Shown: positions 181 through 24,678 of the stretch, in pieces
Layout of the letters: each line of letters begins with the position of its first letter
How positions within the stretch are numbered: the first letter of the stretch is position 1
From: Propionibacteriaceae bacterium
Lineage (GTDB): Bacteria; Actinomycetota; Actinomycetes; Propionibacteriales; Propionibacteriaceae
Assembly: GCA_031256725.1 (NCBI GenBank)
Contig: JAIRQE010000026.1
Location: 1-32,000, forward strand
Length of the DNA stretch: 32,000 nt
Direction of reading: 5' to 3'
The notes under the pieces: model-generated
Database searches by the model: none
Told to the model about the DNA's origin: nothing
The model's input: only the letters and a program-made list of their open reading frames with translations
Position numbers and translations under genes: made by a program

Positions 181-1194
181 TTATACGATAATACGATGTA
201 CTGTAATCCCACTATCGTGACCGATTACAAGAACATCATCCACTGCTGCAAGACGTCCAACCCTTCCTTCTGTGGTAGATATCGTCCGTAGTTCTCGATT
301 ATGAATGACATTCCACAACTGAACCTCCCTCTGATCTGTAGCCATGGCAACAATCACCTCACCTCCTGAATGGACTACAGCCATATCGTTAATCAAAGCA
401 TCTCTACTGACCACTCCACGCGAAACAATGACACCAAGAGTAATATTAGAAACACAATATTTTCCATGCCAACCACTTGTCACCACATAATGATTTTTGT
501 TGCTTTCATATAAACACATCCTTCTCATGTGTCCAACTTTAACGAAACCACTTTGCACAATCTCATCGTCAACCCACCAACGCACGACACCATCCCCACC
601 ACCACTCACGATTATGGATGACTCATTCGATCGCGCCACTTCCACTTTCCTGACACCCCCCCGAACAACCCACGATCTCAGCACATCACCTGAGGTGACA
701 TCCCACACACGAACACTTCCATCACGCCCAGCAGAGACAACCTGACCCTCGCCTTCACGATACGCAACCGATCTCACCCAGTCTCCATGATTCCCAAAGA
801 CACGACGACACTGCCCTGTTACCACATCCCATAAGCGTACTGACCCATCATGTCCCCCCGAAACCACAACATGCTTACCCCCAAGCTGCCCATGTGCAAG
901 CGACGAGGACCACGCGGACCTGAGAATCCACCCCGGAATATGTGACCCATCATCCCGAAAGACGCCTACTGCGGTATCATATTCTGGGTCGCCCACGAAC
1001 ACCGACACATACTCACCAGACCATGCACATCTGAGTTGAACCTCATTCTCATATGAAATAGCAACCACGGGCTTACCGTTCATTTGCCACACGCAGAGAG
1101 TCTCAGGACCCATGCGCCCAACGCGAGGCACACGAATTGTGTACCCATCTGTGCTATTCCTGGAAGACATCTCTTTAAAATCATCCATACCCAA
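181..1194 (-). CDS. WD40 / beta-propeller repeat protein; by position a candidate immunity protein for the toxin-like fragment directly upstream
   Basis: 337-aa ORF with visible WD-type repeat units: GGHDGSVRLWDVVTGQ, SAGRDGSVRVWDVTSGD, SGGGDGVVRWW. The start is TTG at 1194 or ATG at 1188, 10-16 nt after the stop (1205-1207) of the toxin-like fragment. Confidence 0.75.
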   Translation of the reverse strand: MGMDDFKEMSSRNSTDGYTIRVPRVGRMGPETLCVWQMNGKPVVAISYENEVQLRCAWSGEYVSVFVGDPEYDTAVGVFRDDGSHIPGWILRSAWSSSLAHGQLGGKHVVVSGGHDGSVRLWDVVTGQCRRVFGNHGDWVRSVAYREGEGQVVSAGRDGSVRVWDVTSGDVLRSWVVRGGVRKVEVARSNESSIIVSGGGDGVVRWWVDDEIVQSGFVKVGHMRRMCLYESNKNHYVVTSGWHGKYCVSNITLGVIVSRGVVSRDALINDMAVVHSGGEVIVAMATDQREVQLWNVIHNRELRTISTTEGRVGRLAAVDDVLVIGHDSGITVHRIIV

Positions 1195-2431: not shown

Positions 2432-3127
2432 ATGAAGACTGATCATGAGAAGGAAGTGTTTGATCTCGTAAGACTTATTTTTCGTGGAATTCGAACAGCA
2501 GTGATGAGGGAGGAGTTTTTTGCTGTGGTCGATTTTCTTCATGGTATAGATTCATGTTGCGGCTACCTTGACCTGAATGAAGGGTTCAATAATTGGCTCG
2601 TACCTAAACTCGGACTTAAGTCATGTTATAGGGAATGGCCGTGGCTGGTTTTGGATCTCTTTCACGTATCTGACGAGGAGGATAAAAGAGTTATTCCTGG
2701 TCAGGAGCGAGAACTCATTGCTGGGTTAGGAGCGTTGCTCTGTGAGTATATAGACGAAAAAAAGGCTGGAGATATTGATAGGCACTCTAGGAATCAGGTG
2801 TTCTCTATGGTTGAAACCATTTTTGAAACGCCTAGTGTTTTCGTCATGCGGGAAGAGTTCTTTGCGGTTGTTGACTATATCAATGGTATTGATTCGTGCT
2901 GTGAATACCTTGAGTTGAATCGTGGCTTCCATGATTGGCTTCTACCTAAACTTGGACTTCGATCCTGTAGCTATGCATGGCCGTGGTTGGTTCTCAAATT
3001 ACTTCCTGGATATGAAGCAGATCACATGGCGAGAGTCTTCCCGAGTCGTGAACGTGAACTCATTGATGGGCTTGGAAAACTCATGTGCGAATACCTGAAT
3101 GAGAAGCAATCTAATGCATTCCGATAA
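2432..3127 (+). CDS. Putative cognate immunity protein built from two tandem copies of one ~103-aa domain
   Basis: The ATG lies 14 nt after the toxin stop, preceded by AAGGAAAGGGG. Copy 1 is aa 9-111 (nt 2456-2764) and copy 2 is aa 123-226 (nt 2798-3109). They share VMREEFFAVVD, NGIDSCC.YL.LN.GF..WL.PKLGL.SC, WPWLVL, RELI.GLG.L.CEY..EK. They are roughly 60% identical by eye. Confidence 0.7.
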   Translation: MKTDHEKEVFDLVRLIFRGIRTAVMREEFFAVVDFLHGIDSCCGYLDLNEGFNNWLVPKLGLKSCYREWPWLVLDLFHVSDEEDKRVIPGQERELIAGLGALLCEYIDEKKAGDIDRHSRNQVFSMVETIFETPSVFVMREEFFAVVDYINGIDSCCEYLELNRGFHDWLLPKLGLRSCSYAWPWLVLKLLPGYEADHMARVFPSRERELIDGLGKLMCEYLNEKQSNAFR

Positions 3128-3192
3128 GTAATGATGCCTTGAATCGTCCGACAATAATCCTTATCAGATATATTATTTATTTTGCTATTTAG

Positions 3193-3342
3193 CCGACAAA
3201 ACTCATTGGCGAATTGAGAGAAGAGCTTGGGTTAACCGATGAAGAAATCGAAGAGTTCCTTGAATCCTTATTCGGGTTAGACTCGACAGGCGGTGGTGAC
3301 AATGATCCACCAAACAACGATCCACCTACAGGACTACGATGA
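3193..3342 (+). pseudogene. Remnant of another toxin gene of the same family: only the coiled-coil end and the Gly/Pro linker remain
   Basis: The frame between stops reads PTKLIGELREELGLTDEEIEEFLESLFGLDSTGGGDNDPPNNDPPTGLR*. LTDEEIEEFLESL parallels MTEKEFNDLLEQL of the 1722-2417 protein, and TGGGDNDPP parallels its GGGGNKPP linker. There is no start codon and no toxin domain. Confidence 0.45.
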
Positions 3343-3375: not shown

Positions 3376-3522
3376 GTGATGGAAGACCACACAGGGGAAT
3401 CAACCTATGAATATGATGAATTAGGAAGACTGACACGTGTCACCCAGGCAAGTGGACGAGCTGTCACATACACCTACACCTGTGATGGATATATTAATGA
3501 GATTGGGTATCCCGATGGTTCT
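3376..3522 (+). pseudogene. RHS/YD-repeat fragment (relic)
   Basis: The first 49 codons of track ORF 3376..3750 read ESTYEYDELGRLTRVTQASGRAVTYTYTCDGYINEIGYPDGS. This matches the YD-repeat pattern YxYDxxGRL..(x)..YxY. Similarity ends after that point, and the ORF then runs into the XRE gene in another frame. Confidence 0.55.
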
Positions 3523-3674
3523 CATGGCGTGATGACGAGGTTTTCTCAACACCTGGTGGAGTGTTCTGGTATGGGTTCGCTCATAGTGTGGCACAACAGG
3601 CAACATGAAACCAATATGACGCACAGGGGCGCCAATGTGCGCCTCGGAGGCTACTTTGACACTTCACTCAAAAA

Positions 3675-3688
3675 GTGTAAAATTACAC
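3675..3688. promoter_or_regulatory. Perfect 6-2-6 inverted repeat GTGTAA-aa-TTACAC; candidate operator upstream of the XRE gene
   Basis: The repeat was read directly from the sequence. It lies 20-33 nt upstream of the ATG at 3708, just before the GGGAAGGGG Shine-Dalgarno sequence. Confidence 0.3.
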
Positions 3689-3707
3689 TATCTGGGAAGG
3701 GGTACAC

Positions 3708-4160
3708 ATGCCAGACAAGAGGGCAGAGTTCATCGCAACATGTGATGTGAAGCTACGCCTTGTCCGCGTGGAGGCCGATCTGACTCAAGAAGAGATGGCA
3801 TACGCTCTGGGGATTTCAAAGAAGACTCTCGTCGATATTGAAAAGGGTCGCAGGACCCTTGGATGGACTGGATCAGTGGCTCTGTGCGCAGTGTTCCCCA
3901 GTTCGGAGGTCATAGCATCCGCCTTTGGTGGGCATCCAAGCGAGATGATCCCGGCTTTAGCACGTACCGATCAAATTCCTCAGCGGGAATCTGGGGGAAA
4001 TCCCTGGTGGGAAACCATCGCTGACAACGGACAATTCATTATCGAGCAGAACCTTATCTCCCAGCATTATCGATTGCTCACCCATGACCGGACCAAGGTT
4101 GCGGCCTCCTTCGATATTGATGATCTTGTACCCCTCTTCCATGGGCAACCAAAGGAGTAG
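3708..4160 (+). CDS. XRE-family helix-turn-helix transcriptional regulator with an uncharacterised C-terminal domain
   Basis: The HTH signature LTQEEMAYALGISKKTLVDIEKGRR is visible. The stop lies 2 nt before the next gene, and AAGGAG inside its 3' end serves the downstream ATG. Confidence 0.8.
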   Translation: MPDKRAEFIATCDVKLRLVRVEADLTQEEMAYALGISKKTLVDIEKGRRTLGWTGSVALCAVFPSSEVIASAFGGHPSEMIPALARTDQIPQRESGGNPWWETIADNGQFIIEQNLISQHYRLLTHDRTKVAASFDIDDLVPLFHGQPKE

Positions 4161-4162
4161 TA

Positions 4163-6718
4163 ATGGAATACCTCATCCCCATTGTGAGCATAATTCTTGT
4201 GATCGTTGTACTAGTACAGTTAAGTGGGCTGCGCAACGAGGTACAACAGTTGCACCGTGAGTTGCGCCGTATGGATACCCGTCTTCACGGGCATCAACCC
4301 ACACCTGTACCATATCCTGCACCGCAGCAGCTGGTACCATATCCGATGCCAATGGTGCAGCCCCCGGCCTCCCAACCTCCGGCACCTCCAGTACCACAGA
4401 CACCAGTACCACAGTCCCCAGTATCGCAGATACCAGTTTCGGTGCAGACTCCTGTACCCCCAGCCGCTCAGACGGTACAGGATCAGGAGCGGAAGGTTCT
4501 TCCTGCCTATGTAGCGCCAGATCCCCAGGTCGGGGCCCCTGTTCAGCGTTCTCAAACCATGACTCTCCCCCCAATGCCAACGCCGTCACCTCGTCAAGGT
4601 TTCGTGATGAACGAGAACTTTATGGGCCGCAATATCTTGCCTCTGGTTGCCTCGGTACTGGGTCTCATCGGTCTGATCTTTCTGGGGATTCTCGTCGTCC
4701 CGTACATGTCAGATTTAGTACGGATTGCGCTGATGTTTGTGATCAGTGGGGCGATTGGTGAACTGGGATACTTCCTCAACAAGAAGAGTTCATCTGTACT
4801 CACCAGGGCACTTATTGGTACAGGTGTGGGTGGGGTCTTCATTTCCATCCTCGTCACCCATCTCTATTTCCATGCGATCAACGACATCACTGCCTTTGCT
4901 CTACTCGCAGTGTGGATCATCGCAAGTATGTGGCTCGCCAAGCATACGAATTCCCTTCTCATCTCGATCTTGGCTCATGCGGGAATGATGGGATCAATCG
5001 CTTTGGCGTACATCGGGCAGGTCAGTGATGACCAACTCATATTGGTTGTTGTCTATCAAATCATCGCCACTCTCGCGATAATTCTTGGCAATATCTTCTG
5101 GGTGAAGAAGACCTACCGTTTCGGGCTATTCGCATCCCAAGGAATGATCCTGATTTCTCTGATCACGATGTCTATCCGGTTGATGCCTGGAACTGAGATT
5201 CAGTCGATGTTCCCTGAGGGACTCATTGTGACCACCTTCTTTATCCAGTTCCTCGGAGGTACAGCCCTGGCGTACTTCATCTTCGTTTCCTGTGCTCGTG
5301 TGAAGGATGAAACTCTGACCGTGGTTCTGACAAGCGCGAATATCCTCATGTGGGCTGGAATCCTTGTTGCGGGAGTCATCAGGGTCATCAACTCGTTGGC
5401 GATTGCTCACATGGATGCGGATATCTGGAGCAACTCTGGTGAGCTTCCGTTAGCCTACATTGTGGGGTTGGCGATAGTTGTTGGAGTCACGTTTGTTGTG
5501 TCCATGATGGGATCGAAGCTCTCGATGAGGAAGTCCTTTGACTATTCCGCCATCGCCTCCTTGGCGATCCTCATGGGGGTCCTCATGGCGACACGTTATA
5601 CCCAATTCAGTATATGGAATGGGGCTCAGTACTCTCCAGAGATCCTGTGGTTCATCATCCCAGCTGGAGTTTTTATCCTTCTCGCGCGCGGATTCAAGTC
5701 TGAGGGATATACCTGGGCTGGTCGGGTCTTCTTGGCGATAGACACAGTCTTCATGGTACTAAGAGGCTATGGGAAGTTGAGTGAGTCGTGGACGCTCTGG
5801 GCCTCTGTGGGCTATCTGATCCTATCTGTGGGCTTGAGCTATCTGTCCACGAAGCAGGTCAGTGATGCGGCTGCCCACAAACACAGATCTGACTTCATTG
5901 TGATGCGTTTCCTGGGTGCCACAGTCTCACTGATGTCTATTACGATCACAGCAGACATTGGTTATGGCGGTGGACTGTTCATGATCGTCGTCGCAGCCAT
6001 GCTCGCTGCCCTGCACTTCTTTGGCAAGCCCGGACACCAACTCTTCTACCGCATCAGCGAATTGACCCTAGCCATCTTGACAGCCTTTGGCCTCTACCAG
6101 GTTGGGAGCAACCTTAGCCTACGGAAGGTGTGCCCAGAATGTGATCTAACCTCCAGCAACATCGATATCATTCTTCTCAGTGCTGCGGCCATCATCCTTA
6201 TCGCCATCTTCCTAGACAGGGCACGCCTAGCTGCTCGGAAGACCTCAGCCGCCCTGCGTACCCATAAGGAAGTTGATACAAATGTTGAACTGTTGTCGGG
6301 GATTGGCTTCAATTTTGCAGCTGTCGGGATCTGCCTGCCCTGGTTCCTTCCCGCAGTGAGCTCATACTGGGGATTCCCCGTCTCGTTGACCTGCATGGTG
6401 GTATCCCTGATCATCGTGGGGCTAGGCCTGTGGTCTCGGGTCAAGACTTTGAGGTTGTACGGCCTGGTCGTTGTCATCATCTGCGTACTGAAGATGGTCA
6501 CCCTCGACATTGGTTCTGTCACCTCGATCATGCGCGTGATTGCCCTCCTTGGAGGTGCTGCCATCTGCTTCGGGATCTCCGCCCTCTACAACTACACTGC
6601 CAAGTACTTTGACAAAGAGTTGGCCCAAGAGATTCCAGATGATACTCCTGTTCCGGTACAGGTGGGAGTCAGCGATTCACCAAGCCCACTTTCCCCAAGC
6701 CAGGGAGGTAGAACCTGA
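4163..6718 (+). CDS. Large polytopic membrane protein, DUF2339-like
   Basis: 851 aa. It begins with an N-terminal TM helix, then a short coiled coil (LRNEVQQLHRELRRMDTRL) and a Pro-rich spacer (PVPQ-type repeats). More than 15 hydrophobic helices follow. This architecture is typical of DUF2339. Assignment is by recollection only. Confidence 0.6.
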   Translation: MEYLIPIVSIILVIVVLVQLSGLRNEVQQLHRELRRMDTRLHGHQPTPVPYPAPQQLVPYPMPMVQPPASQPPAPPVPQTPVPQSPVSQIPVSVQTPVPPAAQTVQDQERKVLPAYVAPDPQVGAPVQRSQTMTLPPMPTPSPRQGFVMNENFMGRNILPLVASVLGLIGLIFLGILVVPYMSDLVRIALMFVISGAIGELGYFLNKKSSSVLTRALIGTGVGGVFISILVTHLYFHAINDITAFALLAVWIIASMWLAKHTNSLLISILAHAGMMGSIALAYIGQVSDDQLILVVVYQIIATLAIILGNIFWVKKTYRFGLFASQGMILISLITMSIRLMPGTEIQSMFPEGLIVTTFFIQFLGGTALAYFIFVSCARVKDETLTVVLTSANILMWAGILVAGVIRVINSLAIAHMDADIWSNSGELPLAYIVGLAIVVGVTFVVSMMGSKLSMRKSFDYSAIASLAILMGVLMATRYTQFSIWNGAQYSPEILWFIIPAGVFILLARGFKSEGYTWAGRVFLAIDTVFMVLRGYGKLSESWTLWASVGYLILSVGLSYLSTKQVSDAAAHKHRSDFIVMRFLGATVSLMSITITADIGYGGGLFMIVVAAMLAALHFFGKPGHQLFYRISELTLAILTAFGLYQVGSNLSLRKVCPECDLTSSNIDIILLSAAAIILIAIFLDRARLAARKTSAALRTHKEVDTNVELLSGIGFNFAAVGICLPWFLPAVSSYWGFPVSLTCMVVSLIIVGLGLWSRVKTLRLYGLVVVIICVLKMVTLDIGSVTSIMRVIALLGGAAICFGISALYNYTAKYFDKELAQEIPDDTPVPVQVGVSDSPSPLSPSQGGRT

Positions 6719-8153: not shown

Positions 8154-10016
8154 ATGCCAACACGACCTGATCTGCGAAATGTCGCCATCATTGCACACGT
8201 CGACCACGGAAAGACCACTCTTGTGGATGCGATGCTGTGGCAATCAGGTGCCTTCCGCGCCAACCAGGAAGTGGAAACCCGGGTCATGGATTCCATGGAT
8301 CTGGAGCGTGAGAAGGGGATCACGATCCTCGCTAAGAACACCTCTGTGGCCTCCCATGATGCTGAGGGAAATCCGATCCTCATCAACATCATTGATACCC
8401 CTGGTCACGCTGACTTCGGTGGTGAAGTTGAACGTGGTTTAGAGATGGTTGACGGGGTACTCCTGCTCGTCGATGCTAGTGAAGGGCCGCTGCCTCAGAC
8501 GAGATTCGTCCTGCGTAAGGCCCTCGCCAAACATCTGCCGATTGTACTGGTTGTCAACAAGGTTGACCGTGCGGATGCCCGAATTGCCGAGGTCGTGGAT
8601 GAGACCTATGCCCTGTTCATGGATCTCCTGGATGATGATGAGGCCGATAAACTCGATTTCCCTATCGTGTACTGTGCGGCTAAGGCGGGTCGCGCATCCT
8701 TGAACCAACCAGCAGATGCCACGATGCCTGATTCCGAGAATCTGCGCCCCCTGTTTGAGACAATCTTCACTCACATTCCCGCTCCCTCCTATGAGGAGGG
8801 CCACTGTCTTCAAGCCCATGTCACTAACCTGGATGCATCCCCCTATCTGGGGCGTTTGGCCTTGTGCCGAGTGGTGAATGGTACCCTCACCAAGGGTCAG
8901 ATGGTGGCGTGGTGTAAGCGCGATGGCTCTGTGGTGAATGTGAAACTTTCAGAGTTGTTGCGTACGGAAGCCCTTGATCGTGTACCAGCCGAATCCGCAG
9001 GACCTGGTGACATCGTGGCTATCGCGGGAATCCCCGAGATCAACATCGGTGAAACTCTCTCCGATCCCGATAACCCTCTACCGCTTCCGCTGATCCATGT
9101 CGATGAGCCCTCGATCTCGGTGACTGTCGGGATCAACACCTCTCCCTTGTCTGGTCGTTCCGGCAAGAATCTGACGGCCCGACTCGTCAAGGCCCGCCTG
9201 GATCAAGAGTTGGTGGGCAATGTTTCCATTCGCGTGCTCCCCACTGAACGCCCCGATGCTTGGGAGGTACAGGGCCGGGGCGAACTCCAACTTGCCATCC
9301 TCGTCGAGATCATGAGGCGTGAATCCTTCGAGCTCACTGTCGGCAAACCCCAGGTGGTCACCAAAACCATCGACGGGAAACTCCACGAACCAACTGAAAG
9401 ACTCACCATTGATGCCCCCGAAGAGTACGTCGGCGCCGTCACCCAACTCCTGGGTCTACGCAAGGGACGCCTCGAACAGATGGTCAACCACGGTACAGGT
9501 TGGGTACGCATCGAGTACATCGTCCCCGCGCGTGGACTCATCGGTTTCCGTACTGAATTCCTCACCGAAACCAGGGGTACGGGCATCATGAACCACGTCT
9601 TCGAAGGCTACGAGCCGTGGGCCGGTGACATGCGTCTACGCCCAACCGGCTCCCTGGTGGCCGACCGTTCCGGGACTGTAACCTCCTATGCTCTATTCAA
9701 CCTCCAAGAACGCGGCTCCCTGTTCATCTCCCCTGGCATGGAGGTGTACGAAGGCATGATCGTTGGCGAGAATCCCCGCCAAGAAGACATGGATGTCAAC
9801 CCCACCAAGGAAAAGAAGCTTACCAATATCCGTTCCTCCACTGGCGATGAACTGGAGAGGTTGGTGCCCGCTCGAATCCTGAGTCTGGAGGCCGCTCTAG
9901 AGTTCTGTCGCGAGGATGAGTGCGTGGAGATCACCCCCTCGGAAATCCGACTGCGCAAGGTTGAACTCGACGCGAACAAGCGTGCTCGTACCCGTTCGAG
10001 GGCAAAGAGTGCCTGA
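8154..10016 (+). CDS. typA: Translational GTPase TypA/BipA
   Basis: 620 aa with G1 [10 protein letters not shown]3 DTPGHADF and G4 NKVD. The length and EF-G-like domain order are characteristic. Confidence 0.95.
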
Positions 10017-10077
10017 TACTCGTGCTGGGAATCCACCGGCGCTCTCGCGGGGGCGTCGTCTAGCACCATGGTCTTTG

Positions 10078-10923
10078 ATGATCATGGCGATCCTATGGGG
10101 GTCGACCTTCTTCTCCATCAAGCGGATTCTGCTCCATCTTCCCGTGAGCGATTTCTTGGCAGTACGATTCCTCATCTCGACTGTGGTACTCGTGATCGTC
10201 TTCCATCGATCCTTGAAGATGAGCAGCCGTACCCTCATTCGCGGGCTGATCCTTGGGGGACTGTGGGCTGCAGCACAACTCCTCCAAACCGCTGGACTCG
10301 CTCACACCGCCGCATCGATCTCCGGATTCGTCACAGGGTTGTACGTGGTCTTCACCCCCGTTTTGGGGCTCATCGTCTTCCGGTTTCGAGTACATCGCTG
10401 GGTGTGGGTAGCAGTCGGCTTAGCGACACTTGGGCTCGCAGCGCTCACGATCCGCCCCGATTCCGAGACCTTCATAGGGTACGGGGAGGCCCTCACTATC
10501 GGATGTGCTGTGATGTACGCCCTCCACATCGTGATCATGGGGCAGTGGTCCACCCCCGAAGAGGCGGGTGCTCTGACGGTAGGCCAATCTGTTTCGATGA
10601 CAGCCATCTTCTTCATCTTTGCTGCTCCGGGTGGGATCACCCTACCCTCCACTGGAGTTGATTGGGCTTGGATGATCTACCTAGCGGTGATCTGTGGGGC
10701 CCTGACCCTGCTGATCCAGACCTGGGCCCAAGGACACATGGAGGCATCCAAGGCCGCAGTCATCATGTGTTCTGAACCTTTGTGGGCTACCTTCTTTGCG
10801 ATTCTTCTCGGTGGTGAGAGACCCAATTGGCTCTTCGCCGTAGGTGCGATTGCGATCCTTGTGGCGATGTATCTGGTGATCCGTCCACCGCCCAATTCAA
10901 AAGACTCCGCCACTATCCAGTAA
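10078..10923 (+). CDS. EamA/DMT-family transporter
   Basis: About 10 TM helices in two halves, with an N-terminus MIMAILWGSTFFSIKR. The track ORF start at 9916 overlaps typA and is rejected. ATG at 10078 is the first start after the typA stop. Confidence 0.8.
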   Translation: MIMAILWGSTFFSIKRILLHLPVSDFLAVRFLISTVVLVIVFHRSLKMSSRTLIRGLILGGLWAAAQLLQTAGLAHTAASISGFVTGLYVVFTPVLGLIVFRFRVHRWVWVAVGLATLGLAALTIRPDSETFIGYGEALTIGCAVMYALHIVIMGQWSTPEEAGALTVGQSVSMTAIFFIFAAPGGITLPSTGVDWAWMIYLAVICGALTLLIQTWAQGHMEASKAAVIMCSEPLWATFFAILLGGERPNWLFAVGAIAILVAMYLVIRPPPNSKDSATIQ

Positions 10924-11140
10924 CTCCAAAGGTGCAAACCTCATCATCTTGCTTGGAGGGTGAAGAGAATGATATGCCAACAAGATACTACTCCCGATGG
11001 GTCTGTAGGAGGCGGATTTATATTTCTTGAGCGTAGATTCGTGGGACCAAAAAAAAGTGTCTTGAAATATGAGAAAACTCTTGACAAGATTATCTAGTTT
11101 TGTGGGATGATACCTATATCTACCCAAGGAGGGGGTTGTC

Positions 11141-11209
11141 ATGAAGCGTCGTTTCTCTGTTCTTCCAGTCGCTGAGGTATACGGAGGCCCCCCAGTAGTT
11201 CATGTGTGA
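11141..11209 (+). CDS. 22-codon ORF at the head of the array (MKRRFSVLPVAEVYGGPPVVHV); possibly a collapsed T-type gene (T1 remnant) or a leader peptide
   Basis: A strong Shine-Dalgarno sequence AAGGAGGGGG lies 5-7 nt before the ATG. TTGACA at 11081-11086 lies upstream. The stop is 12 nt before I1. Similarity to other T tails is weak. Confidence 0.25.
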   Translation: MKRRFSVLPVAEVYGGPPVVHV

Positions 11210-11221
11210 AAGGATGGGACT

Positions 11222-11533
11222 ATGACGATTAAGGAAGATTCATCGGTTGACCAAATGTCAAATAACCTACAACGGAAAATCACTCATATCGCAGTACTCG
11301 TAGTGCCTTTGTCTTGCATGCTGGGGTTTTGTGGTGGCATTCTGGAGAAAACTGCGGTTGCGAAAAACGATGGTTTTTTGACCTATGGTATCCGCCTAGC
11401 TGCCATTCTGGTATTCACTTATACTATGATTCATTTATCACAACATGGAATTCGCGGGTGGCAGAAAATACTCTGCATCATAGTGTCACTACTTATTATA
11501 TGTGGAACAATGTGGTATGTGCTGAGCCTTTAG
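11222..11533 (+). CDS. I1: 103-aa three-TM membrane protein of the IRGW family (putative immunity protein)
   Basis: MTIKEDSS..ITHIAVLVVPLSCMLGFCGGIL..YGIRLAAILVFTYTMIHL..GIRGWQKILCIIVSLLIICGTMWYVLSL. AAAGGA lies 8 nt before the ATG. Confidence 0.7.
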   Translation: MTIKEDSSVDQMSNNLQRKITHIAVLVVPLSCMLGFCGGILEKTAVAKNDGFLTYGIRLAAILVFTYTMIHLSQHGIRGWQKILCIIVSLLIICGTMWYVLSL

Positions 11534-11568
11534 GATTTGAGCAGGGCGTCTATAAACTGACAGGCTAG
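11521..11568 (+). pseudogene. T2 remnant: only the last ~15 codons of a T-type gene (AEPLGFEQGVYKLTG*), fused onto the 3' end of I1
   Basis: This is the tail of track ORF 11314..11568. The rest of that ORF is an off-frame shadow of I1. The FEQGVY peptide is shared with T3 and T5. Confidence 0.4.
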
Positions 11569-11747
11569 AGGGGGGAAGGAATAGTGGTTGGGTGTGTTGA
11601 ATATCGGGGCTTCGTGAATCGGTATAATCAACTCTCGAACACTCAGCGGATTCAGTAGTCTCTGTGGCAAATGCAAAGTCAGGTAGGTTGCCAGCAACAT
11701 AGTGAATTGAATGCTCGTCGGAGCTAATACTTGGCGGAGGTGTCTCA

Positions 11748-12059
11748 TTGCCGGAAAATAAGGAACAGAATTCTCGAAAACTTGGGGTAGATGCGTTGAA
11801 ATCAGTAAGATACTTTGCCCTGTTCGTGTTGCCATTGGTAGTCTTGTTGGGTTATTCGGGGGTAATGCTAGAAAGTAATTTCGAAAGAATGGAAACTGTA
11901 CCGTATATTGGCGTTCGCGTGGCTTCGGCTATGATGATAGTTGCCCTAATACTTGGGTTCCGTTCTCAAGGAATACGAGGATGGTATCTTATTGTATGTT
12001 CTGTTGCTGGAACAGTCGTTTGGTTATTGACAGTTTGGTATTTCTGGCCAAGCGTTTGA
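11748..12059 (+). CDS. I2: 103-aa three-TM IRGW-family membrane protein
   Basis: TTG start with GGCGGAGG 7 nt upstream. Sequence: ..VRYFALFVLPLVVLLGYSGVML..VPYIGVRVASAMMIVALILGF..GIRGWYLIVCSVAGTVVWLLTVWYFW. Confidence 0.7.
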   Translation: MPENKEQNSRKLGVDALKSVRYFALFVLPLVVLLGYSGVMLESNFERMETVPYIGVRVASAMMIVALILGFRSQGIRGWYLIVCSVAGTVVWLLTVWYFWPSV

Positions 12060-12160
12060 GCTTGGTTGCGGTTGCTGAGGCTCGGAAGTCTCGTGAGCAT
12101 GTGGCTGGCTCATCCAAACTATGATGTCATCAAGGCATCGGAAACTCCTGAACCTGCGGA

Positions 12161-12283
12161 GTGAGACTGTCGGAAAACGGTGGGTGGGGGCTTGGTCTGA
12201 CATGCCGAGGAACGTATACATGCACCTCGAAGAATGTAACTCTGTATGCGAAGTGGAAAGCCGTGGGTGGTACTATGACGATT
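12161..12283 (+). pseudogene. Relic sequence: possible Flg_new (Listeria-Bacteroides) repeat end (..KNVTLYAKWKAV) followed by a relic I-type gene start (GGTMTI)
   Basis: Track ORF 12161..12355 reads ..GGWGLGLTCRGTYTCTSKNVTLYAKWKAVGGTMTISVV... The VTLYAKW ending is typical of Flg_new repeats. Positions 12266-12283 match 11213-11230 (the I1 start region) at 16 of 18 nt. Confidence 0.3.
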
Positions 12284-12308
12284 TCAGTCGTTAAACACTT
12301 TACGTGTT

Positions 12309-12725
12309 GTGATGTACTTGCCAGAAGATCCCACAGTGCCAGAAGAAGCAGCTGATAACTTCTTTCAAGGTATGATGAAGGTGGATAATCCAGAAGCAGT
12401 TTTAGCCATAATAACTACAGAGGGTAGGGCAGCTGCAGTGGCAGCTATCTGCACGGGCTTGATGGTATCATCTTTCGCGGCAGGTCTGACAGTAGCTGCT
12501 ATTAATGCATCAGCGTATTTGGACTATACGGCTCAACAGAATGATCTCATTGATGCATATTATAGTTCTTCAAGTGGTTTCCTAGTGGTTGATTCTATGG
12601 TCATCATCACAAATCGTAATGGGATAATATATACAGATCGCTATGTTGACTATTACAGAGCAACCGATATCAATGCTGCGCCGGGAGGATCCTTTGAACA
12701 AGGGGTATATCATATAGGCTCATAG
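12309..12725 (+). CDS. T3: small Ala/Gly-rich protein ending in FEQGVYHIGS (putative toxin/bacteriocin-like partner of I3)
   Basis: 138-aa ORF. An alternative ATG at 12372 gives 117 aa, similar to T5. The central segment is RAAAVAAICTGLMVSSFAAGLTVAAINA. It aligns with T5 at AV..II.E.G, AAG, Q.N, G.LV.V, YRAT and FEQGV. The stop lies 33 nt before I3. Confidence 0.6.
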   Translation: MMYLPEDPTVPEEAADNFFQGMMKVDNPEAVLAIITTEGRAAAVAAICTGLMVSSFAAGLTVAAINASAYLDYTAQQNDLIDAYYSSSSGFLVVDSMVIITNRNGIIYTDRYVDYYRATDINAAPGGSFEQGVYHIGS

Positions 12726-12758
12726 TGGGAAAATTGGAGATTTGATAGAAGGACAGCA

Positions 12759-13070
12759 ATGGAGAATAGTGAATTCGGCATTGATTCGAAGAAAAGAGCG
12801 AAAGAAACATCTCACTTTTTTGTATTATATCTAATTCCAATGTCATGCTTGATTGGGTATTCCCTTGTCACGGCGCAGTCGAACGCAAATCATGAAGGCG
12901 GAATGTTGGCGCTTGGCGTGGGCCTATGCGTTTCTTTGTTGATTGTCCACACTATATACGAATTACGCACTCACAATATACGGGGTTGGTTTGCGGTTGC
13001 CTGCATTGTAGGAGCAATGATTACCCAAGGGCTAACAATATGGTATTGTCTGGCTTCAGTGAAGACGTGA
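12759..13070 (+). CDS. I3: 103-aa three-TM IRGW-family membrane protein
   Basis: GAAGGA lies 6 nt before the ATG. Sequence: ..SHFFVLYLIPMSCLIGYSLV..MLALGVGLCVSLLIVHTIY..NIRGWFAVACIVGAMITQGLTIWYCL. Confidence 0.7.
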   Translation: MENSEFGIDSKKRAKETSHFFVLYLIPMSCLIGYSLVTAQSNANHEGGMLALGVGLCVSLLIVHTIYELRTHNIRGWFAVACIVGAMITQGLTIWYCLASVKT

Positions 13071-13292
13071 TTGGGAATTCGCAGATCGTATGCTTCGAGT
13101 TCTAATTCGAGAAGTGGAATGGGAATTGTCGTATCTTTATGATTTCCTAGCTTATAAAGCATCCGAAGTAGCGGCTTCCTTATTATAGATGACTCATTTA
13201 CTAATGCGTCGCATGCGGTCTACTATAGCTACGGTGTTGATGTAGTCAGCCTAGGAGTATTCAAGCCCGGGATATATGATATTCTATCATAG
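13063..13292 (+). pseudogene. T4: broken T-type gene with N- and C-terminal pieces in different frames and the central segment deleted
   Basis: Frame 1 (13063-13188) reads RRDWEFADRMLRVLIREVEWELSYLYDFLAYKASEVAASLL*, compared with the T5 N-terminus EEWDAVVRIIAEAG. Frame 0 (13158-13292) reads SIRSSGFLIIDDSFTNASHAVYYSYGVDVVSLGVFKPGIYDILS*, compared with the T3 tail SSSGFLVVDS..FEQGVYHIGS*. Confidence 0.45.
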
Positions 13293-13357
13293 TATGACGT
13301 AAAATGGGTTCTGATGGATTACAGTAAGTGGGAAGGTTGTCTTTACCCTTTAATGAT

Positions 13358-13717
13358 ATGAAAAGCAGGGAAAACTTGAATCCTGAGATTGAGGTGTCCA
13401 AGATAGTCGAGCATGACCAGCCACCTATAACTGATGGGCGGATAGTGAAGATGCGAAGGGCACTTGGTTACTTCATATCATTCTTATTGCCAGTAGGTTG
13501 CCTCATGGGTTGTGGCATTGTGTTAATTCAGCCGGAGGCAGGAGAGAAAATTAGATACTTTCCTTATATTGGGGTTCATGTGGCCCTAGCCATGTTGCTT
13601 GTGTACATCGTCTACGACTTTCCATTGCGTCGAATACGAGGTCAGTATGCCGTTGGTTGTTTTGTGGGGTTGATGATAGTTCTGTCTCTGACGATATGGT
13701 ATCTCATGACTCATTAG
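13358..13717 (+). CDS. I4: three-TM IRGW-family membrane protein (motif variant IRGQ) with a longer N-terminus
   Basis: The track ORF starts at GTG 13328, but ATG 13358 (MKSRENLN..) fits the other paralogues better. Neither has a clear Shine-Dalgarno sequence. Sequence: ..YFISFLLPVGCLMGCGIVL..FPYIGVHVALAMLLVYIVY..RIRGQYAVGCFVGLMIVLSLTIWYLM. Confidence 0.65.
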   Translation: MKSRENLNPEIEVSKIVEHDQPPITDGRIVKMRRALGYFISFLLPVGCLMGCGIVLIQPEAGEKIRYFPYIGVHVALAMLLVYIVYDFPLRRIRGQYAVGCFVGLMIVLSLTIWYLMTH

Positions 13718-13763
13718 TAATGATAGTTATTTAGTAGAGACGCGCCCTTTTTGCTAGGAGCTA

Positions 13764-14102
13764 TTGTGGATTGAGAAATCATCCGAGGAAGAGTGGGATG
13801 CGGTCGTTAGGATAATAGCAGAGGCTGGTCTTGTTGATACGGCCGCTGAAATTGCCGTTCGATTTACTCTACCTGGGAAGGTTGCAGCAGGGATTGTGTC
13901 AATATTGGCTGGGATGATAGAGGTTGATATGATCCACCAGAGAAACATGCTTCGTGTGGCAATCACTGCCTGCCCAGACAACGGTCTGGTGGAGGTGCAC
14001 CAGGTCGTTGGTACGCGTCTCCCCATCACGTATAGGGCGACCATGGAAGTTGAGGGTAGTGGTGATTTCGAGCAAGGTGTTCATCGATATACCGCTCGCT
14101 AG
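13764..14102 (+). CDS. T5: 112-aa T-type protein ending in FEQGVHRYTAR
   Basis: A TTG start is the only option in frame, and AGGAG lies just 3 nt upstream, so it may not be efficiently translated. It is homologous to T3 along its whole length. The stop lies 30 nt before I5. Confidence 0.5.
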   Translation: MWIEKSSEEEWDAVVRIIAEAGLVDTAAEIAVRFTLPGKVAAGIVSILAGMIEVDMIHQRNMLRVAITACPDNGLVEVHQVVGTRLPITYRATMEVEGSGDFEQGVHRYTAR

Positions 14103-14132
14103 AAAAGTGTCGTTTACTCTTAAGGATTTTAA

Positions 14133-14445
14133 ATGAAAGAAACGGATGATATAAGCTCAGAGGAGCATCAGGGTCAGACTTTTCGAATAGTGGGTTACTT
14201 GGTAATGCGCATTGTTCCTTTGTCCATCGTGTTTGGATTTGCTGCTGCCCAGAGTGTAAGGCTCGAAGCAACTGGAATGGAAGGCATACTACGACTCATT
14301 ATACACTATATCACTTATAGTTGTATTTGGGGGTAACTCTATCGAACTGAATAATTATCGGATAAAAGGTTGGGCGCGGTTTGCCTGTTTCGTGGCATCA
14401 CTGGGTCTTGTAACCGCGACAGCTTGGTATGCACTTACTCTTTAG
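14133..14445 (+). pseudogene. I5: IRGW-family gene (variant IKGW) disrupted by a frameshift near 14300
   Basis: Frame 0 (track ORF 14133..14336) reads MKETDD..IVGYLVMRIVPLSIVFGFAAA..GILRLII and then stops. The family sequence continues in the +1 frame as ..TISLIVVFGGNSIELNNYRIKGWARFACFVASLGLVTATAWYALTL*, with its stop at 14443-14445. Confidence 0.6.
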
Positions 14446-14574
14446 AATTCTGACTATATCTTGGGCGCCCACCCCCACTTAATCTGAGAGGAGCCCGTTT
14501 GTGTCTGAATTGTGACCTGAATACGTTCGGATTGTGAGCAACAGTACTGGTTGACGCGATAGAATCATGAGGTT

Positions 14575-14591
14575 GGGCGCGAGGCGCGCCC
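14575..14591 (+). promoter_or_regulatory. GC hairpin (GGGCGCG-agg-CGCGCCC) in the 5' leader of the ABC operon, downstream of a TAGAAT -10-like hexamer at 14560-14565
   Basis: A perfect 7-bp inverted repeat with a 3-nt loop was read directly. It lies 26 nt before the ATG at 14617. No U-tract follows. Confidence 0.3.
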
Positions 14592-14616
14592 GTGTACAAC
14601 CAACCAAGGAGACGCA

Positions 14617-15603
14617 ATGAAATTACGCCGCCTGCTGCCCGCTCTCGCGACAATGGCAGCTCTTAGCCTGGGCCTGTCGGCCTGCGGTACCCCTGCCGAA
14701 AAAGAAGACCCGGCTGCAACTGAAACCTTTAACATCGGTGTTGCCGTTATCGTCGCCCACCCAGCTCTTGAAGCTGCTCAGGCTGGATTTGAAGAAGTCC
14801 TCGCTGAGGAGGGTGTTGACTACAAGATTCAATTCGAAAATGCTCAAGGTGATCCTGCCAACGCTCCAACTATTGCAACCGTGCTTGCTGGTAACGCTGA
14901 TATTGATCTCTTCCTTGCGATCTCGACTCCTGTCGCAGTGGCTATGGCGAGCGCAGAGCAGACCCGTCCGATCCTCTTCACTGCTGTGACTGATCCGGTT
15001 GCTGATGGGCTTGTTCCCTCATGGGACGCGGCAGCACCCAACATGACTGGTACCTCGGATAAGAATCCAGGAGCTTTGCCTGTTCATCTCATTCAGGAGA
15101 TTATGCCTGATGTGAAGACTATCGGTGTTCTCTACACCTCATCTGAGTCCAACTCCCTGTCTCAGGTAGAGGACTACAAGAAGGAAGCTGCCGAACTCGG
15201 CATCACCATCAAGGAGCAGGGTATCACTGCTGCCTCTGAAGTTTCTGTTGGTCTGTCCGCGCTGGCTGATGTTGACGCTATCCTCATCCCAACAGACAAT
15301 ACCGTTGTTGCTGCCATCGCTTCAGTGATCGCTTTCGGGCAAGAGAACAAGATCCCTGTGTTCTGTGCAGATTCTTCCACTGTTGAAGCTGGTACAGTCG
15401 CAACTCGTGGTCTCAATTATCATGACCTCGGTCGTCGCACTGGTGAAATGGCTGTCGGCATCCTCCGTGATGGCAAGACTGTCGCTGATTTCGCACCTGA
15501 GGCTCCAGTGAGCACCGACTTGTCAATCAGCAAGGCCGCTGCCGAGTCCTTTGGGATAACTCTCCCCGATGCTCTCATCGCGGAGGCGAAGACCACCTTC
15601 TGA
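14617..15603 (+). CDS. ABC transporter substrate-binding lipoprotein (ABC_sub_bind / COG2984 type)
   Basis: It has a signal peptide with lipobox LSAC (MKLRRLLPALATMAALSLGLSACG). The family-like motif NIGVAVIVAHPALEAAQAGFEEVL is present. AAGGAG lies upstream. Confidence 0.85.
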   Translation: MKLRRLLPALATMAALSLGLSACGTPAEKEDPAATETFNIGVAVIVAHPALEAAQAGFEEVLAEEGVDYKIQFENAQGDPANAPTIATVLAGNADIDLFLAISTPVAVAMASAEQTRPILFTAVTDPVADGLVPSWDAAAPNMTGTSDKNPGALPVHLIQEIMPDVKTIGVLYTSSESNSLSQVEDYKKEAAELGITIKEQGITAASEVSVGLSALADVDAILIPTDNTVVAAIASVIAFGQENKIPVFCADSSTVEAGTVATRGLNYHDLGRRTGEMAVGILRDGKTVADFAPEAPVSTDLSISKAAAESFGITLPDALIAEAKTTF

Positions 15604-21942: not shown

Positions 21943-22212
21943 ACTTGGCCTGGTCTTGTTCTGGATACTGCGACCACTAGGTTCCGCGCAGGATGACGTA
22001 GGCCGCGTGGAATGACTTGGGAGCTACAGGATCACTTGTCCTGTCATCGTCACTTTGTCATCACCACTTATCCAAGGAACCCTGCGCGAGTCGAAGAATC
22101 TAGATATCGGAGAATTGCAATTCGGTCGCACTGTCTGGATACTATGACTGGCGTGCGGATGACGTGGAGGGCGAGGTCAGGACTGGTAGTCTGGTGGGGT
22201 CAAGGAGGAAAC

Positions 22213-22764
22213 ATGGCTAGCCCAACCGAGATCTCTGATCTTCTGAACAGCATCACGAGAGATATTCGTACCATCATCTCCGATGAGATTGCGCTCGTGA
22301 AAGCTGAAATTAAACCAGCAGTACGTCATGTCGGTGTCGGATCGGGCATGTTCGGTGCGGCGGCCTATTTCGCAATCTCGGCGACAATCATCCTCTGGTT
22401 CGTCTTTGCGGCAGGGTTTGCATGGCTCTATGCCTCCGTGACCTCGCTGAGTGCATGGGGGGCGGCCTTCTGGGGAATGTTCACTGCCATGTTCCTTGTT
22501 CTTATCATCGCTGGGGTCTTTGTCGTGATCGGTTTGAAGAACTTCAAGCAAGTACGCGGCCCCGAAAAAGCACCAGAGTCGATCGGGAAGACCTTCAGTG
22601 CCTTTGCCTCAGGTCTGGAAGATGGTGGCAACCGCGTCAAGGCGGAGGTAAGCGGTCGATCAGCCGATGAATGGATTTCCTCGCGCCCTGTAGCTCCTGT
22701 TGGTGGACAAACCAGGACCATTGAGGATGACCCTCTCCGTACTGATCTACAGGGAAAACGTTAA
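22213..22764 (+). CDS. Phage-holin-family / actinobacterial Holin-X-like membrane protein
   Basis: The ATG at 22213 is preceded by AAGGAGGAA, so the track start at 22012 is rejected. An amphipathic N-terminus (ISDLLNSITRDIRTIISDEIALVKAEIK) is followed by two TM helices. Confidence 0.55.
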   Translation: MASPTEISDLLNSITRDIRTIISDEIALVKAEIKPAVRHVGVGSGMFGAAAYFAISATIILWFVFAAGFAWLYASVTSLSAWGAAFWGMFTAMFLVLIIAGVFVVIGLKNFKQVRGPEKAPESIGKTFSAFASGLEDGGNRVKAEVSGRSADEWISSRPVAPVGGQTRTIEDDPLRTDLQGKR

Positions 22765-23646: not shown

Positions 23647-24678
23647 ATGCATCTTTCTCCAGCTACCTTGGTTAGTACAGACCCCCGTCTGATTCACCTC
23701 GCCCAAGCATCGGCAGCCGCCAGTGGTGGAACCCTTTCCGTGGTGAGCCATGCCGAGGATCTTCGGGCCTTGTGGCGTACCTCCTCTGCGATCCTCATTG
23801 GTGCTGACTGTATCGAAGAGGTGGTGAGTTGGGCCCTGCCCAGGCGAGAGCAGGTCTATCTCCTTGGGTTTGAGGAATCCCAGGAGGTACTCTGCCAATG
23901 GTCGGTGCCTTTGGGGGCCTCAGTCATCCAACTGCCTGATGGAGGGAAATGGCTGTCCCGAGTCATTGCTGGGCATACTCGTGATCTGGAGACTGGGGTC
24001 GTGGTGGAAGTCAGGGGTGGTGCAGGAGGAGTGGGAGCCTCAACACTGTGCGCGGGCCTAGGCGTGGTTGCGCAAGCGAAAACTCTCGCGGTGGCTCTCG
24101 TGGATGCCGACCCTTGCGGAGGTGGTCTCGATTTATTGATGGGTGCAGAGAGTGCTCCAGGGTGGCGGTGGGATAAATTACGTAAGGCTGTCGGGCAGAT
24201 TGCCGATGTCACATCAATGTTGCCAAGGGCTGAGGGCATCACCATGGTGTCCATGGAGCGGGGTTCTTCTGAGCCTGTACCCATGGCCGCTCTTGAGGCT
24301 GTCATCGACTGTCTCGCAAGAACCCATGACCTTGTCCTTGTTGATCCGGGGCGTACAACAGGGGAACTTCAGTCGGTCAAGCGTTCCGTGATCCTCTCGA
24401 CGCAAACCGTGCGTTCCTTAGCCTCCACAAAGGTGAGGTTGAGCGAGTTCACAACAAAGAATTCTGCCTTGGTAATACGTAAGGGTGGATCTGTGGGAGC
24501 CGGTGATGCAGCGCGGGCCTTGGATCTTCCACTCATCGGGATTCTCCCCAATGTGGTCGAACTTCCACGCCTAGCAGATCGGGGGATACCGCCCTCACTG
24601 GGTGGTGCGTGGAAGAAATCCTGTTCCAAAATTCTCAACTGGTGCATGGGTGAGTCGATTCCTGCGAGGGGGGTCTGA
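23647..24678 (+). CDS. CpaE/Ssd-like septum-site-determining / secretion-neighbourhood ATPase-like protein
   Basis: It has a deviant Walker-like VVEVRGGAGGVGASTLCAGLG and DADPCGGGLDLLMG. It is the first gene of the tad-like cluster, as in the mycobacterial Rv3660c-Rv3654c arrangement. Confidence 0.8.
   Translation: MHLSPATLVSTDPRLIHLAQASAAASGGTLSVVSHAEDLRALWRTSSAILIGADCIEEVVSWALPRREQVYLLGFEESQEVLCQWSVPLGASVIQLPDGGKWLSRVIAGHTRDLETGVVVEVRGGAGGVGASTLCAGLGVVAQAKTLAVALVDADPCGGGLDLLMGAESAPGWRWDKLRKAVGQIADVTSMLPRAEGITMVSMERGSSEPVPMAALEAVIDCLARTHDLVLVDPGRTTGELQSVKRSVILSTQTVRSLASTKVRLSEFTTKNSALVIRKGGSVGAGDAARALDLPLIGILPNVVELPRLADRGIPPSLGGAWKKSCSKILNWCMGESIPARGV

Follow-up and report, generated by a model that had tools for sequence, protein, structure and literature searches.

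The window analysed here, the whole 32,000-nucleotide stretch of contig JAIRQE010000026.1 from a Propionibacteriaceae bacterium, carries a tandem array of small genes. The original prediction had described this array as five modules on one strand, each pairing a variable small protein (T) with a small membrane protein (I), and had proposed a toxin/immunity family. The array is contained in an island of low guanine-plus-cytosine (GC) content (45.1%, compared with 53.2% in the remainder of the window), flanked by genes for an EamA-family transporter and an ABC substrate-binding protein. The features of the island and its flanks are as follows (nt, nucleotides; aa, amino acids; ORF, open reading frame).

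9916-10923, EamA-family transporter gene (Pfam), upstream flank of the island
10924-14616, plus strand, low-GC island of 3.7 kb containing the entire T/I array
11222-11533, plus strand, I1, intact, three-helix membrane protein of 103 aa; NCBI tag LBG99_09025
11530-11568, plus strand, T2 remnant, final 12 codons of the T domain (LGFEQGVYKLTG and stop codon)
11748-12059, plus strand, I2, intact, 103 aa; TTG start with GGAGG about 8 nt upstream
12242-12274, plus strand, remnant of a repeat/T junction, LYAKWKAVGGT
12309-12725, plus strand, T3, ORF of 138 aa, nearly complete T domain; tag LBG99_09030
12759-13070, plus strand, I3, intact, 103 aa; same frame as T3; matches P0002
13105-13292, plus strand, T4 remnant, second half of the T domain with one frameshift, about 45-65 codons (including SSGFLIIDDSF and ending in GVFKPGIYDILS and a stop codon)
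13358-13717, plus strand, I4, intact
13764-14102, plus strand, T5, ORF of 112 aa; tag LBG99_09035
14133-14445, plus strand, I5, paralogue interrupted by a single frameshift at a point between about 14270 and 14336
14617-15603, ABC substrate-binding gene (Pfam), downstream flank of the island

A hidden Markov model (HMM) of I was trained on family members from outside the window and run on 1421 six-frame segments of the window. I1, I2, I3 and I4 were recovered with E-values of 8.5e-16, 2.9e-14, 4.1e-12 and 7.4e-14, respectively, and I5 was recovered as two pieces in different frames (14151-14315 and 14299-14439, with E-values of 1e-6 and 4e-4). Beyond I1 to I5 there were no matches among the 1421 segments. 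As this model recovered the four open copies, both halves of the fifth and nothing else, the array of I paralogues is real and not a product of chance. The five same-strand membrane-protein genes of the original prediction are thus present as ORFs where they had been placed, with I5 frameshifted.

Pairwise identity among the window copies of I was 20-36%, and the positions kept in them were P29, G35, I77, G79, C85, T96, W98 and Y99 (I1 numbering). I1 was the outlier, with at most 25% identity to every other copy and no T remnant 5' of it, and I2, I3 and I4 were mutual closest relatives. With its start at 13358, I4 has an N-terminal insert that is unique in the family alignment; its true start may be the ATG at 13451, giving 88 aa, like the short members of the family. 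Shine-Dalgarno-like sequences were seen by inspection 5' of I1, I2, I3 and I5. No DNA-level repeats connecting the modules were found, which indicates that the duplications are old. The NCBI tags on I1, T3 and T5 (LBG99_09025, LBG99_09030 and LBG99_09035) are consecutive, and therefore I2, I3 and I4 are apparently unannotated in the GenBank record. ORFs on the minus strand opposite the array had no family matches and were taken as spurious.

A second HMM, of T and built without window sequences, was run on the six-frame segments of the window and matched T3 (E = 3.1e-9) and T5 (E = 1.3e-9). These two sequences had been regarded as intact. They are open frames and homologous to each other, but both are 5'-truncated C-terminal domains of a larger protein. 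The T3 ORF starts inside a conserved (V/I)Y(M/L)P motif of the domain and has no signal peptide and no repeats. In T5 the domain is missing some 35 residues at its start, with positions 49-150 of the HMM alone covered, and AGGAG lies directly 5' of the TTG start of the ORF. T4 was matched weakly (E = 0.14, 13158-13289), and by inspection its SSGFLIID lines up with SSGFLVVD of T3. The T2 remnant abuts the I1 stop codon in another frame; the motif LGFEQGVY is the sole basis for its assignment, as it is too short for statistics. T4 and T2 are thus a frameshifted stub and a reduced terminal piece, as had been proposed. A sequence previously listed as T1 (11141-11209, MKRRFSVLPVAEVYGGPPVVHV and stop codon) showed no similarity to T and was dropped, so the claim that each I is preceded by a T-type 3' end applies to T2 to T5 and is not supported for T1. 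The distances from the T stop to the following I start agree with the earlier values (33 nt for T3/I3, 30 nt for T5/I5, 65 nt for T4/I4 and 179 nt for T2/I2).

Decay of T with retention of I had also been predicted, and is what is found: I1 to I4 are open beside truncated T copies, and I5 is frameshifted. The window copies might nevertheless be functionless, whether T/I was once a toxin system or something else, with the I frames open through incomplete decay. Truncation of all window T copies, the frameshift in I5, the failure to detect a terminator or a strong promoter within the island and the apparent omission of I2 to I4 from the NCBI calls would all suit such a relic. They have to be set against four ORFs of about 100 codons which are open at 45% GC and 20-36% identity, i.e. 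a long divergence without disruption, and which all hold the family-wide conserved positions; Shine-Dalgarno-like sequences also precede I1, I2, I3 and I5. A functionless relic is considered quite improbable, and the reading developed below is that I has been kept as an immunity gene.

Relatives of T and I outside the window

Both families are very rare. The I profile gave two outside I matches in a word-index search of 5.8 billion clusters, and, when 1.84 billion protein representatives were searched exhaustively with HMMER, 21 matches, among which were the window copies and one junk repeat protein. No T match was obtained with the T profile in the word-index search. A profile of T3 and T5 scored 29.7 bits on the T domain of metagenomic contig L002, which is insufficient for a search of 1.84 billion proteins, and a four-sequence T alignment found no locus in GTDB species genomes and two loci in JGI metagenomes. 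Plasmids gave no match to T or I by tblastn, and 2.9 million viral contigs held no relative of T (four-sequence alignment) or of I (sequence subset).

Searches of Pfam, NCBIfam, PHROGs and PADLOC with the I family (I1 to I5 and outside members) and the T family (T3, T5 and outside members) found no match that reached a cut-off, and PDB sequence searches with both profiles gave nothing meaningful. For 20 I members, no Pfam family matched more than one of them and none matched at cut-off; DUF443, DUF5079 and DUF5080 were not matched, and no sortase or exosortase family was matched by I. T and I are described in none of the libraries searched, in line with the earlier suggestion that they are undescribed, and no characterised non-toxin system was matched in these libraries either.

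The relatives changed the view of T as a variable small protein, since in them T is the C-terminal domain (about 130-150 aa) of proteins of 600-700 aa. A full-length gene with a T-type C-terminus was looked for in related loci and was found in L013 and L007. The T-bearing loci are listed here; L numbers are labels of metagenomic contigs other than the window, and paired numbers denote one locus.

L013:259-2301, carrier gene, complete, 680 aa: signal-peptide-like N-terminus, four repeats of about 100 aa, one Flg_new (34.6 bits), T
L013:2363-2641, 2703-2978 and about 3013-3285, three tandem I paralogues after T
L007:7635-9494, carrier gene, 619 aa: signal peptide (by inspection), at least six Flg_new (273 bits), T at the end
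L007:9691-9873, displaced T fragment, an orphan second half of T of 60 codons, followed by an I gene
L016/L002, carrier, the gene before an I homologue: at least four Listeria-Bacteroides repeats (Pfam Flg_new, 32.8 bits), then T
L009, signal peptide and two repeats joined via a deletion to the last 20 or so T residues, with I next
L014/L015, T domain (contig cut at the 5' end), then I, then an RHS-repeat gene

Flg_new was the sole family found by Pfam on the full-length T proteins. The N-terminus of the L013 carrier is signal-peptide-like by inspection (...FGGAFSASA/ATA). The lack of a signal peptide, and with it the unclear delivery route, had been pointed out for the array; this is true of the decayed window copies, but the full-length relatives bear a Sec-type signal peptide. 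Two of the three tandem I genes of L013 (2703-3285) were overlooked by the gene caller. Directly 3' of the T/I pair of L014 lies the RHS-repeat gene (L014:1098-2558, Pfam 136 bits), which suggests that this module sits in a toxin island.

The window retains a trace of such a carrier. The junction remnant LYAKWKAVGGT lies 34 nt 5' of T3, in frame +2 (T3 is in frame +3), and forms a collinear tblastn high-scoring segment pair with the L002/L016 protein (9/11 residues identical, combined E = 2e-8); the T HMM gave E = 0.09 for this remnant. Pfam Flg_new was not detected in the frames upstream of T3, and the repeats inferred there are represented by the 11-residue collinear junction match only. Because LYAKWKAVGGT has the form of the junction and not that of a generic repeat end, T3 appears to have once been the C-terminus of such a carrier. 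Judged from its sequence, T3 represents the 3' terminus of a large gene that has been inactivated. A 19-nt direct repeat (17/19 identical) was seen at 11212-11230 (GGATGGGACTATGACGATT) and 12265-12283 (GGGTGGTACTATGACGATT), the first copy spanning the I1 start codon and the second the frameshifted junction 5' of T3; this may be chance.

Common to the T domains are a W-x-(A/P)-x-GG-x-W junction immediately after the final repeat, a (V/I)Y(M/L)P motif, a hydrophobic segment of 30-40 residues that is rich in small residues, the motif CPxNGFVVxEY and a terminal GxGxFxQGV(Y/F). The W-x-(A/P)-x-GG-x-W extension was found only at repeat/T junctions, in L007, L013, L014 and L016. The hydrophobic segment is marginal, with a Kyte-Doolittle (KD) value of 1.65-2.2.

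Each I protein has three hydrophobic segments. An AlphaFold (AF2) model of I1, made with an alignment of 20 family members, showed three long helices (residues 7-43, 51-74 and 80-102) with a predicted local distance difference test score (pLDDT) of 75, and a Foldseek search of the PDB with this model gave no match below E = 5. The mean number of Lys and Arg residues was 3.25 in the N-terminal tail, 0.85 in loop 1, 1.75 in loop 2 and 0.05 at the C-terminus, or 5.0 on the inferred inside versus 0.9 on the outside. Because of this distribution the topology is taken to be N-in/C-out, and the conserved I(R/K)GW would sit at the cytoplasmic start of helix 3. The C-terminal tail past the third transmembrane (TM) helix has a mean length of 2.8 residues and is nearly chargeless.

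A small protein with three TM helices resembles the class I holins. I might therefore be a holin-like or superinfection-exclusion membrane protein, with T a fragment of a phage tail or receptor-binding protein, and a single weak Pfam match (T3 to superinfection exclusion Gp17, E = 0.038, below cut-off) and weak PHROG matches of unknown function (E = 0.004-0.007) are in keeping with this. However, there was no significant PHROG match, T and I have no relatives among the viral contigs, no locus has flanking phage genes or an adjacent endolysin, and I stops at the third helix, lacks the charged C-terminal tail that holins usually have and has an inferred N-in/C-out topology. A phage origin of the array is regarded as very improbable. 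Holin identity for I was itself rejected on the PHROG result, the near-chargeless tail and the lack of phage context.

The survey comprised 11 distinct loci outside the window, most of them reached via I. All five loci with T or a T stub (L007, L009, L013, L014 and L016) have I downstream within 130 nt, and both loci reached via T have I. The co-occurrence is asymmetric, as I is present without T in five loci (L004, L005/6, L011/12, L019 and L020); L003 was too short to judge for T. The solitary I of L005/6 lies between housekeeping genes, and that of L011/12 has an IS1595-family transposase directly upstream (L011:1133-1924 and L012:485-1545) on a contig of 66% GC. Tandem I genes occur in L013 (three after one T), in L020 (two) and in the window (five). 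The toxin/immunity cassette logic first proposed for the array is strengthened in this comparison by I downstream of every T, by solitary and tandem I and by the displaced T fragment of L007.

The GC content of the module was 2 to 20 points below that of its own contig in the window and in L004, L005, L007, L009, L011, L013, L014, L016, L019 and L020 (for example 38% versus 58% in L013, and 50% versus 63% in L016). Membrane-protein codon usage could account for part of this difference, though probably not for gaps of 12-20 points, and the low module GC would fit recurrent horizontal transfer out of a low-GC source. The contigs carrying T/I loci range from 39% to 66% GC, and L016 is from a termite gut (it is on Ga0123354, the same metagenome as the metagenome-assembled genome (MAG) Lab288P4bin104, where Lab288 is Labiotermes labralis). 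This range, together with at least one termite-gut locus, suggests that the module has moved between lineages of low and high GC.

T comes behind Flg_new repeats in signal-peptide-bearing proteins, the usual place for the anchor of a Gram-positive surface protein. T could accordingly be a non-toxic anchoring or sorting module that tethers the exported repeat protein to the membrane of the producer, with I as its partner (a chaperone, retention or assembly factor) and the array as decaying duplicates. The hydrophobic segment is TM-competent at its KD of 1.65-2.2, and T and I adjoin on the same strand, as such partners would. Known C-terminal anchors and sorting signals differ from T in two respects, however: about 70 conserved residues lie C-terminal to the hydrophobic segment, which is not consistently followed by a basic cluster (0-3 Lys/Arg within 15 residues, unlike a stop-transfer anchor). 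Three diverged I genes behind one T in L013, five loci with solitary I and intact I beside broken T are also awkward for an obligate partner, and RHS genes in a low-GC mobile context are typical of conflict systems. An anchoring role for T is considered unlikely. A C-terminal sorting signal of the LPXTG/sortase or PEP-CTERM/exosortase kind, in which a dedicated polytopic enzyme processes a short motif, TM helix and basic tail at the very C-terminus, was rejected on the same two features of T and because I, with three helices, matched no sortase or exosortase.

Interpretation of the T/I array

The island is probably a degenerate, horizontally acquired polymorphic-toxin-like locus, in which T would act on membranes as a C-terminal domain, and I, with its three helices, would be a membrane immunity protein kept in the form of orphans. 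This reading is preferred because a modular carrier that is exported and ends in a conserved C-terminal domain has an obligatory small membrane protein downstream, because I is found as tandem diverged copies, alone elsewhere and behind T stubs that keep their downstream gene, and because RHS neighbours (the L014 gene and a window fragment at 3376-3750) and a foreign base composition accompany the modules. With I embedded in the membrane and a hydrophobic segment present in T, the cytoplasmic membrane is the probable site of action. The counterpart of channel-forming antibacterial toxins is almost always a polytopic membrane protein (PMC12744356), and three TM helices are found in E1-type colicin immunity proteins (PMC9018753) and in CdzI (PMC5380434). 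Tandem diverged I copies match the strings of non-identical immunity paralogues described for type VII secretion system (T7SS) toxins (PMC9484751).

In the proposed mechanism, the carrier would be exported via Sec by its N-terminal signal peptide and would consist of Flg_new or other beta-rich repeats with T at the end. Following the junction LYAxW-x-A-x-GGxW ... (V/I)Y(M/L)P, T would comprise the small-residue-rich, marginally hydrophobic segment of 30-40 residues, then a short helix and a conserved beta-rich tail (CPxNGFVVxEY ... GxGxFxQGV(Y/F)). T may attack Gram-positive neighbours from the outside, its hydrophobic segment inserting into their cytoplasmic membrane, and the N-in/C-out I protein, encoded 30-130 nt downstream, would neutralise its cognate T inside the membrane.

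The carrier in the window would have lost its 5' part, with the frameshifted junction 5' of T3 remaining, and the older copies T4, T5 and T2 would be 3' stubs. A carrier ending in T3/I3 may earlier have pushed T4/I4 and T5/I5 downstream before losing its own 5' part, and I1 and the T2 remnant with I2 may derive from a second, older set. Four intact I genes would be expected if orphan immunity genes continue to protect against T-bearing neighbours, and the T stubs before each I may persist as bearers of I expression signals.

Several observations weigh against this interpretation. In the libraries searched, T and I had no homologue among known toxin or immunity families, and no full-length T gene, signal peptide or repeat region survives in the window. 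The hydrophobic segment of a Sec substrate could be a mere membrane anchor. A strict glycine zipper, defined as (G/A/S)xxxGxxxG or GxxxGxxx(G/S/T) after PMC12744356, was present in two of six T domains (L016 and L014), with looser small-xxx-small ladders in five of the six, and the AlphaFold model of T3 (alignment with T5) had a pLDDT of 39.6, was unusable and was kept out of the fold search. One diverged T family was found on differing carriers, and unrelated C-terminal domains on one carrier were not encountered. The full-length T of L007 has no I gene of its own immediately behind it. The sample is small, at 11 loci, most of which were reached via I, and the number of loci with I alone is therefore in part a product of ascertainment. 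The codon composition of membrane proteins may also contribute to the low GC of the island.

It is an even question whether T/I is an unrecognised class of Gram-positive interbacterial weapon, with a Sec-exported stalk of Listeria-Bacteroides repeats and a membrane-inserting C-terminal domain that would be exchangeable at the LYAxW-GGxW junction and countered by a new three-helix immunity family. If the toxin reading is right, T/I would represent two undescribed sequence families on an unusual carrier, and the few known membrane-targeting antibacterial proteins of Gram-positive bacteria would be joined by a new effector family and a new family of membrane immunity proteins. It would also mean that ordinary Sec-exported surface-repeat proteins can carry toxins without a specialised secretion system, and the I family could be used as a marker of orphan immunity islands in gut metagenomes. 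An annotation gap is evident in any case, as I2 to I4 are seemingly unannotated in the source MAG, two I genes of L013 were missed and models of T and I are lacking in both Pfam and NCBIfam. The extreme rarity of the family and the decay of the window copy limit the practical reach. On sequence grounds, T/I is a credible new toxin/immunity candidate, with an export route now identified.

Other features of the window

At the edges of the island, DNA-level repeats, tRNA genes, Rfam families and terminators were looked for as boundary marks and none was found. The ABC-binding protein was used as a synteny probe, and its sole match was a Micrococcales MAG (66% identity), with the ABC operon in common but not the EamA side. 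Other features of the window were as follows.

181-1194, minus strand, WD40-repeat protein gene, one flank of a second low-GC patch
1449-2417 (322 aa) and 2432-3127 (231 aa), plus strand, gene pair without family match, directly upstream of the RHS fragment
3376-3750, plus strand, RHS-repeat ORF of 124 aa (Pfam 46.5 bits)
4163-6718, plus strand, DUF2339 membrane protein of 851 aa with a proline-rich N-terminal region, other flank of the second low-GC patch
22012-22764, plus strand, actinobacterial Holin-X domain protein of 250 aa (67 bits)

The RHS-repeat ORF resembles a fragment of an Rhs-type polymorphic toxin and lies within the second low-GC patch (2-4 kb, 43-48% GC). The 322-aa protein has a Cys...His...Asp pattern in its C-terminal part (GNCEDVA ... 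WNHYVVVD), and the 231-aa protein consists of two internal repeats of about 115 aa (VMREEFFAVVD.(L/I).GIDSCC.YL.LN.GF); the pair may be another toxin/immunity relic. Adjoining the Holin-X gene, the plus-strand region 23647-27354 encodes a ParA/CpaE-like ATPase and a T2SSE-type secretion ATPase (181 bits) and resembles a Tad/Flp pilus locus.

Comparison with known systems

Among the T7SS LXG toxins, TspA/TsaI, EsxX/ExiCD and TelE (PMC9484751, PMC12744356, PMC10434224) have a small-residue-rich C-terminal segment for which membrane insertion is proposed, as it is for T, and their immunity genes form tandem sets of non-identical paralogues and also exist as orphans in non-producers. In contrast, T/I has no LXG domain, no T7SS genes were found in the window or in the other loci, and export would be via a signal peptide. 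I has no sequence similarity to TsaI (DUF443) or ExiC/D (DUF5079/DUF5080) and is far smaller, with three helices in about 90-105 aa. The parallel drawn earlier with TspA/TsaI is therefore useful as an analogy only, since the LXG domain and homology are lacking and the strict glycine zipper that characterises TspA, EsxX, TelE and CdzC/D is present in just two of the six T domains.

Pore-forming colicins and pyocin S5 also have a C-terminal killing domain in a modular secreted protein, with a hydrophobic Ala/Gly-rich segment, and E1-type colicin immunity (PMC9018753) is likewise a three-TM-helix membrane protein encoded adjacent to the toxin, a resemblance without sequence homology. T is nevertheless about 130 aa with a beta-rich tail, compared with a ten-helix bundle of about 180 aa, there was no Pfam colicin or colicin-immunity match and no PDB sequence match with the T profile, and the setting is Gram-positive, without outer-membrane translocation domains.

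Membrane-dissipating toxins with very small hydrophobic immunity proteins, in highly diverged cognate pairs, are known from contact-dependent growth inhibition (CDI), in the CdiA-CT/CdiI ionophores (PMC11630599), and from the Caulobacter Cdz system (PMC5380434). CdiI proteins have 72-100 aa, and CdzI has three predicted TM domains. These systems differ from T/I in their Gram-negative setting and in delivery by type V or type I secretion, and have no homology to T or I; the predicted folds of CDI are also unlike those here, with five-helix bundle ionophores and a two-helix hairpin for CdiI.

The Sec-dependent polymorphic toxins of Gram-positive bacteria known as S8-PTS (PMC9424270), which occur in Firmicutes and Actinobacteria, share with T/I a signal peptide, a beta-rich presentation or receptor domain, a C-terminal toxin and an immunity gene downstream. 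A BetaH domain in the toxin defines them, a secreted S8 peptidase is encoded next to it, and most have nuclease toxins paired with soluble immunity proteins. No S8 peptidase (Peptidase_S8) gene was present in the gene tables of L007, L009, L013 and L014, and the carrier of T has Flg_new repeats. Without LXG, colicin, S8, DUF443 or DUF5079/5080 features, or a conserved strict glycine zipper, T/I by its sequence belongs to none of these families.

In functional terms the systems compared above are, together with polymorphic toxin loci such as those of Rhs and CdiA (Zhang et al. 2012, PMC3482391), the closest known. T/I differs from the latter in several ways. Its carrier has a Sec signal peptide and Listeria-Bacteroides repeats, a repeat type not listed for Sec-exported toxins in the secretion-pathway table of that work, one diverged T family is found here in place of many unrelated C-terminal domains, and the irregular length of the T remnants suggests deletion and not exchange at one fixed site. 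The likenesses include a large exported carrier, a C-terminal domain that would be the active part, and a small, putatively protective gene next to it. The combination of a trafficking signal and a putative C-terminal effector is seen in L013 and L007 (signal peptide by inspection), whose carriers also have Flg_new repeats, and in the window copies nothing upstream of T is left; the order T then I is kept in all five T loci outside the window and for T2 to T5 within it. Solitary immunity genes in other genomes and a foreign base composition are further points in common. Finally, 5'-truncated C-terminal fragments are stacked behind the main gene, each with its downstream gene (T4/I4 and T5/I5 behind T3/I3, and in L007), and the L007 fragment (9691-9873) and the window copies T4, T5 and T2 resemble the orphan C-terminal cassettes described for polymorphic toxins.

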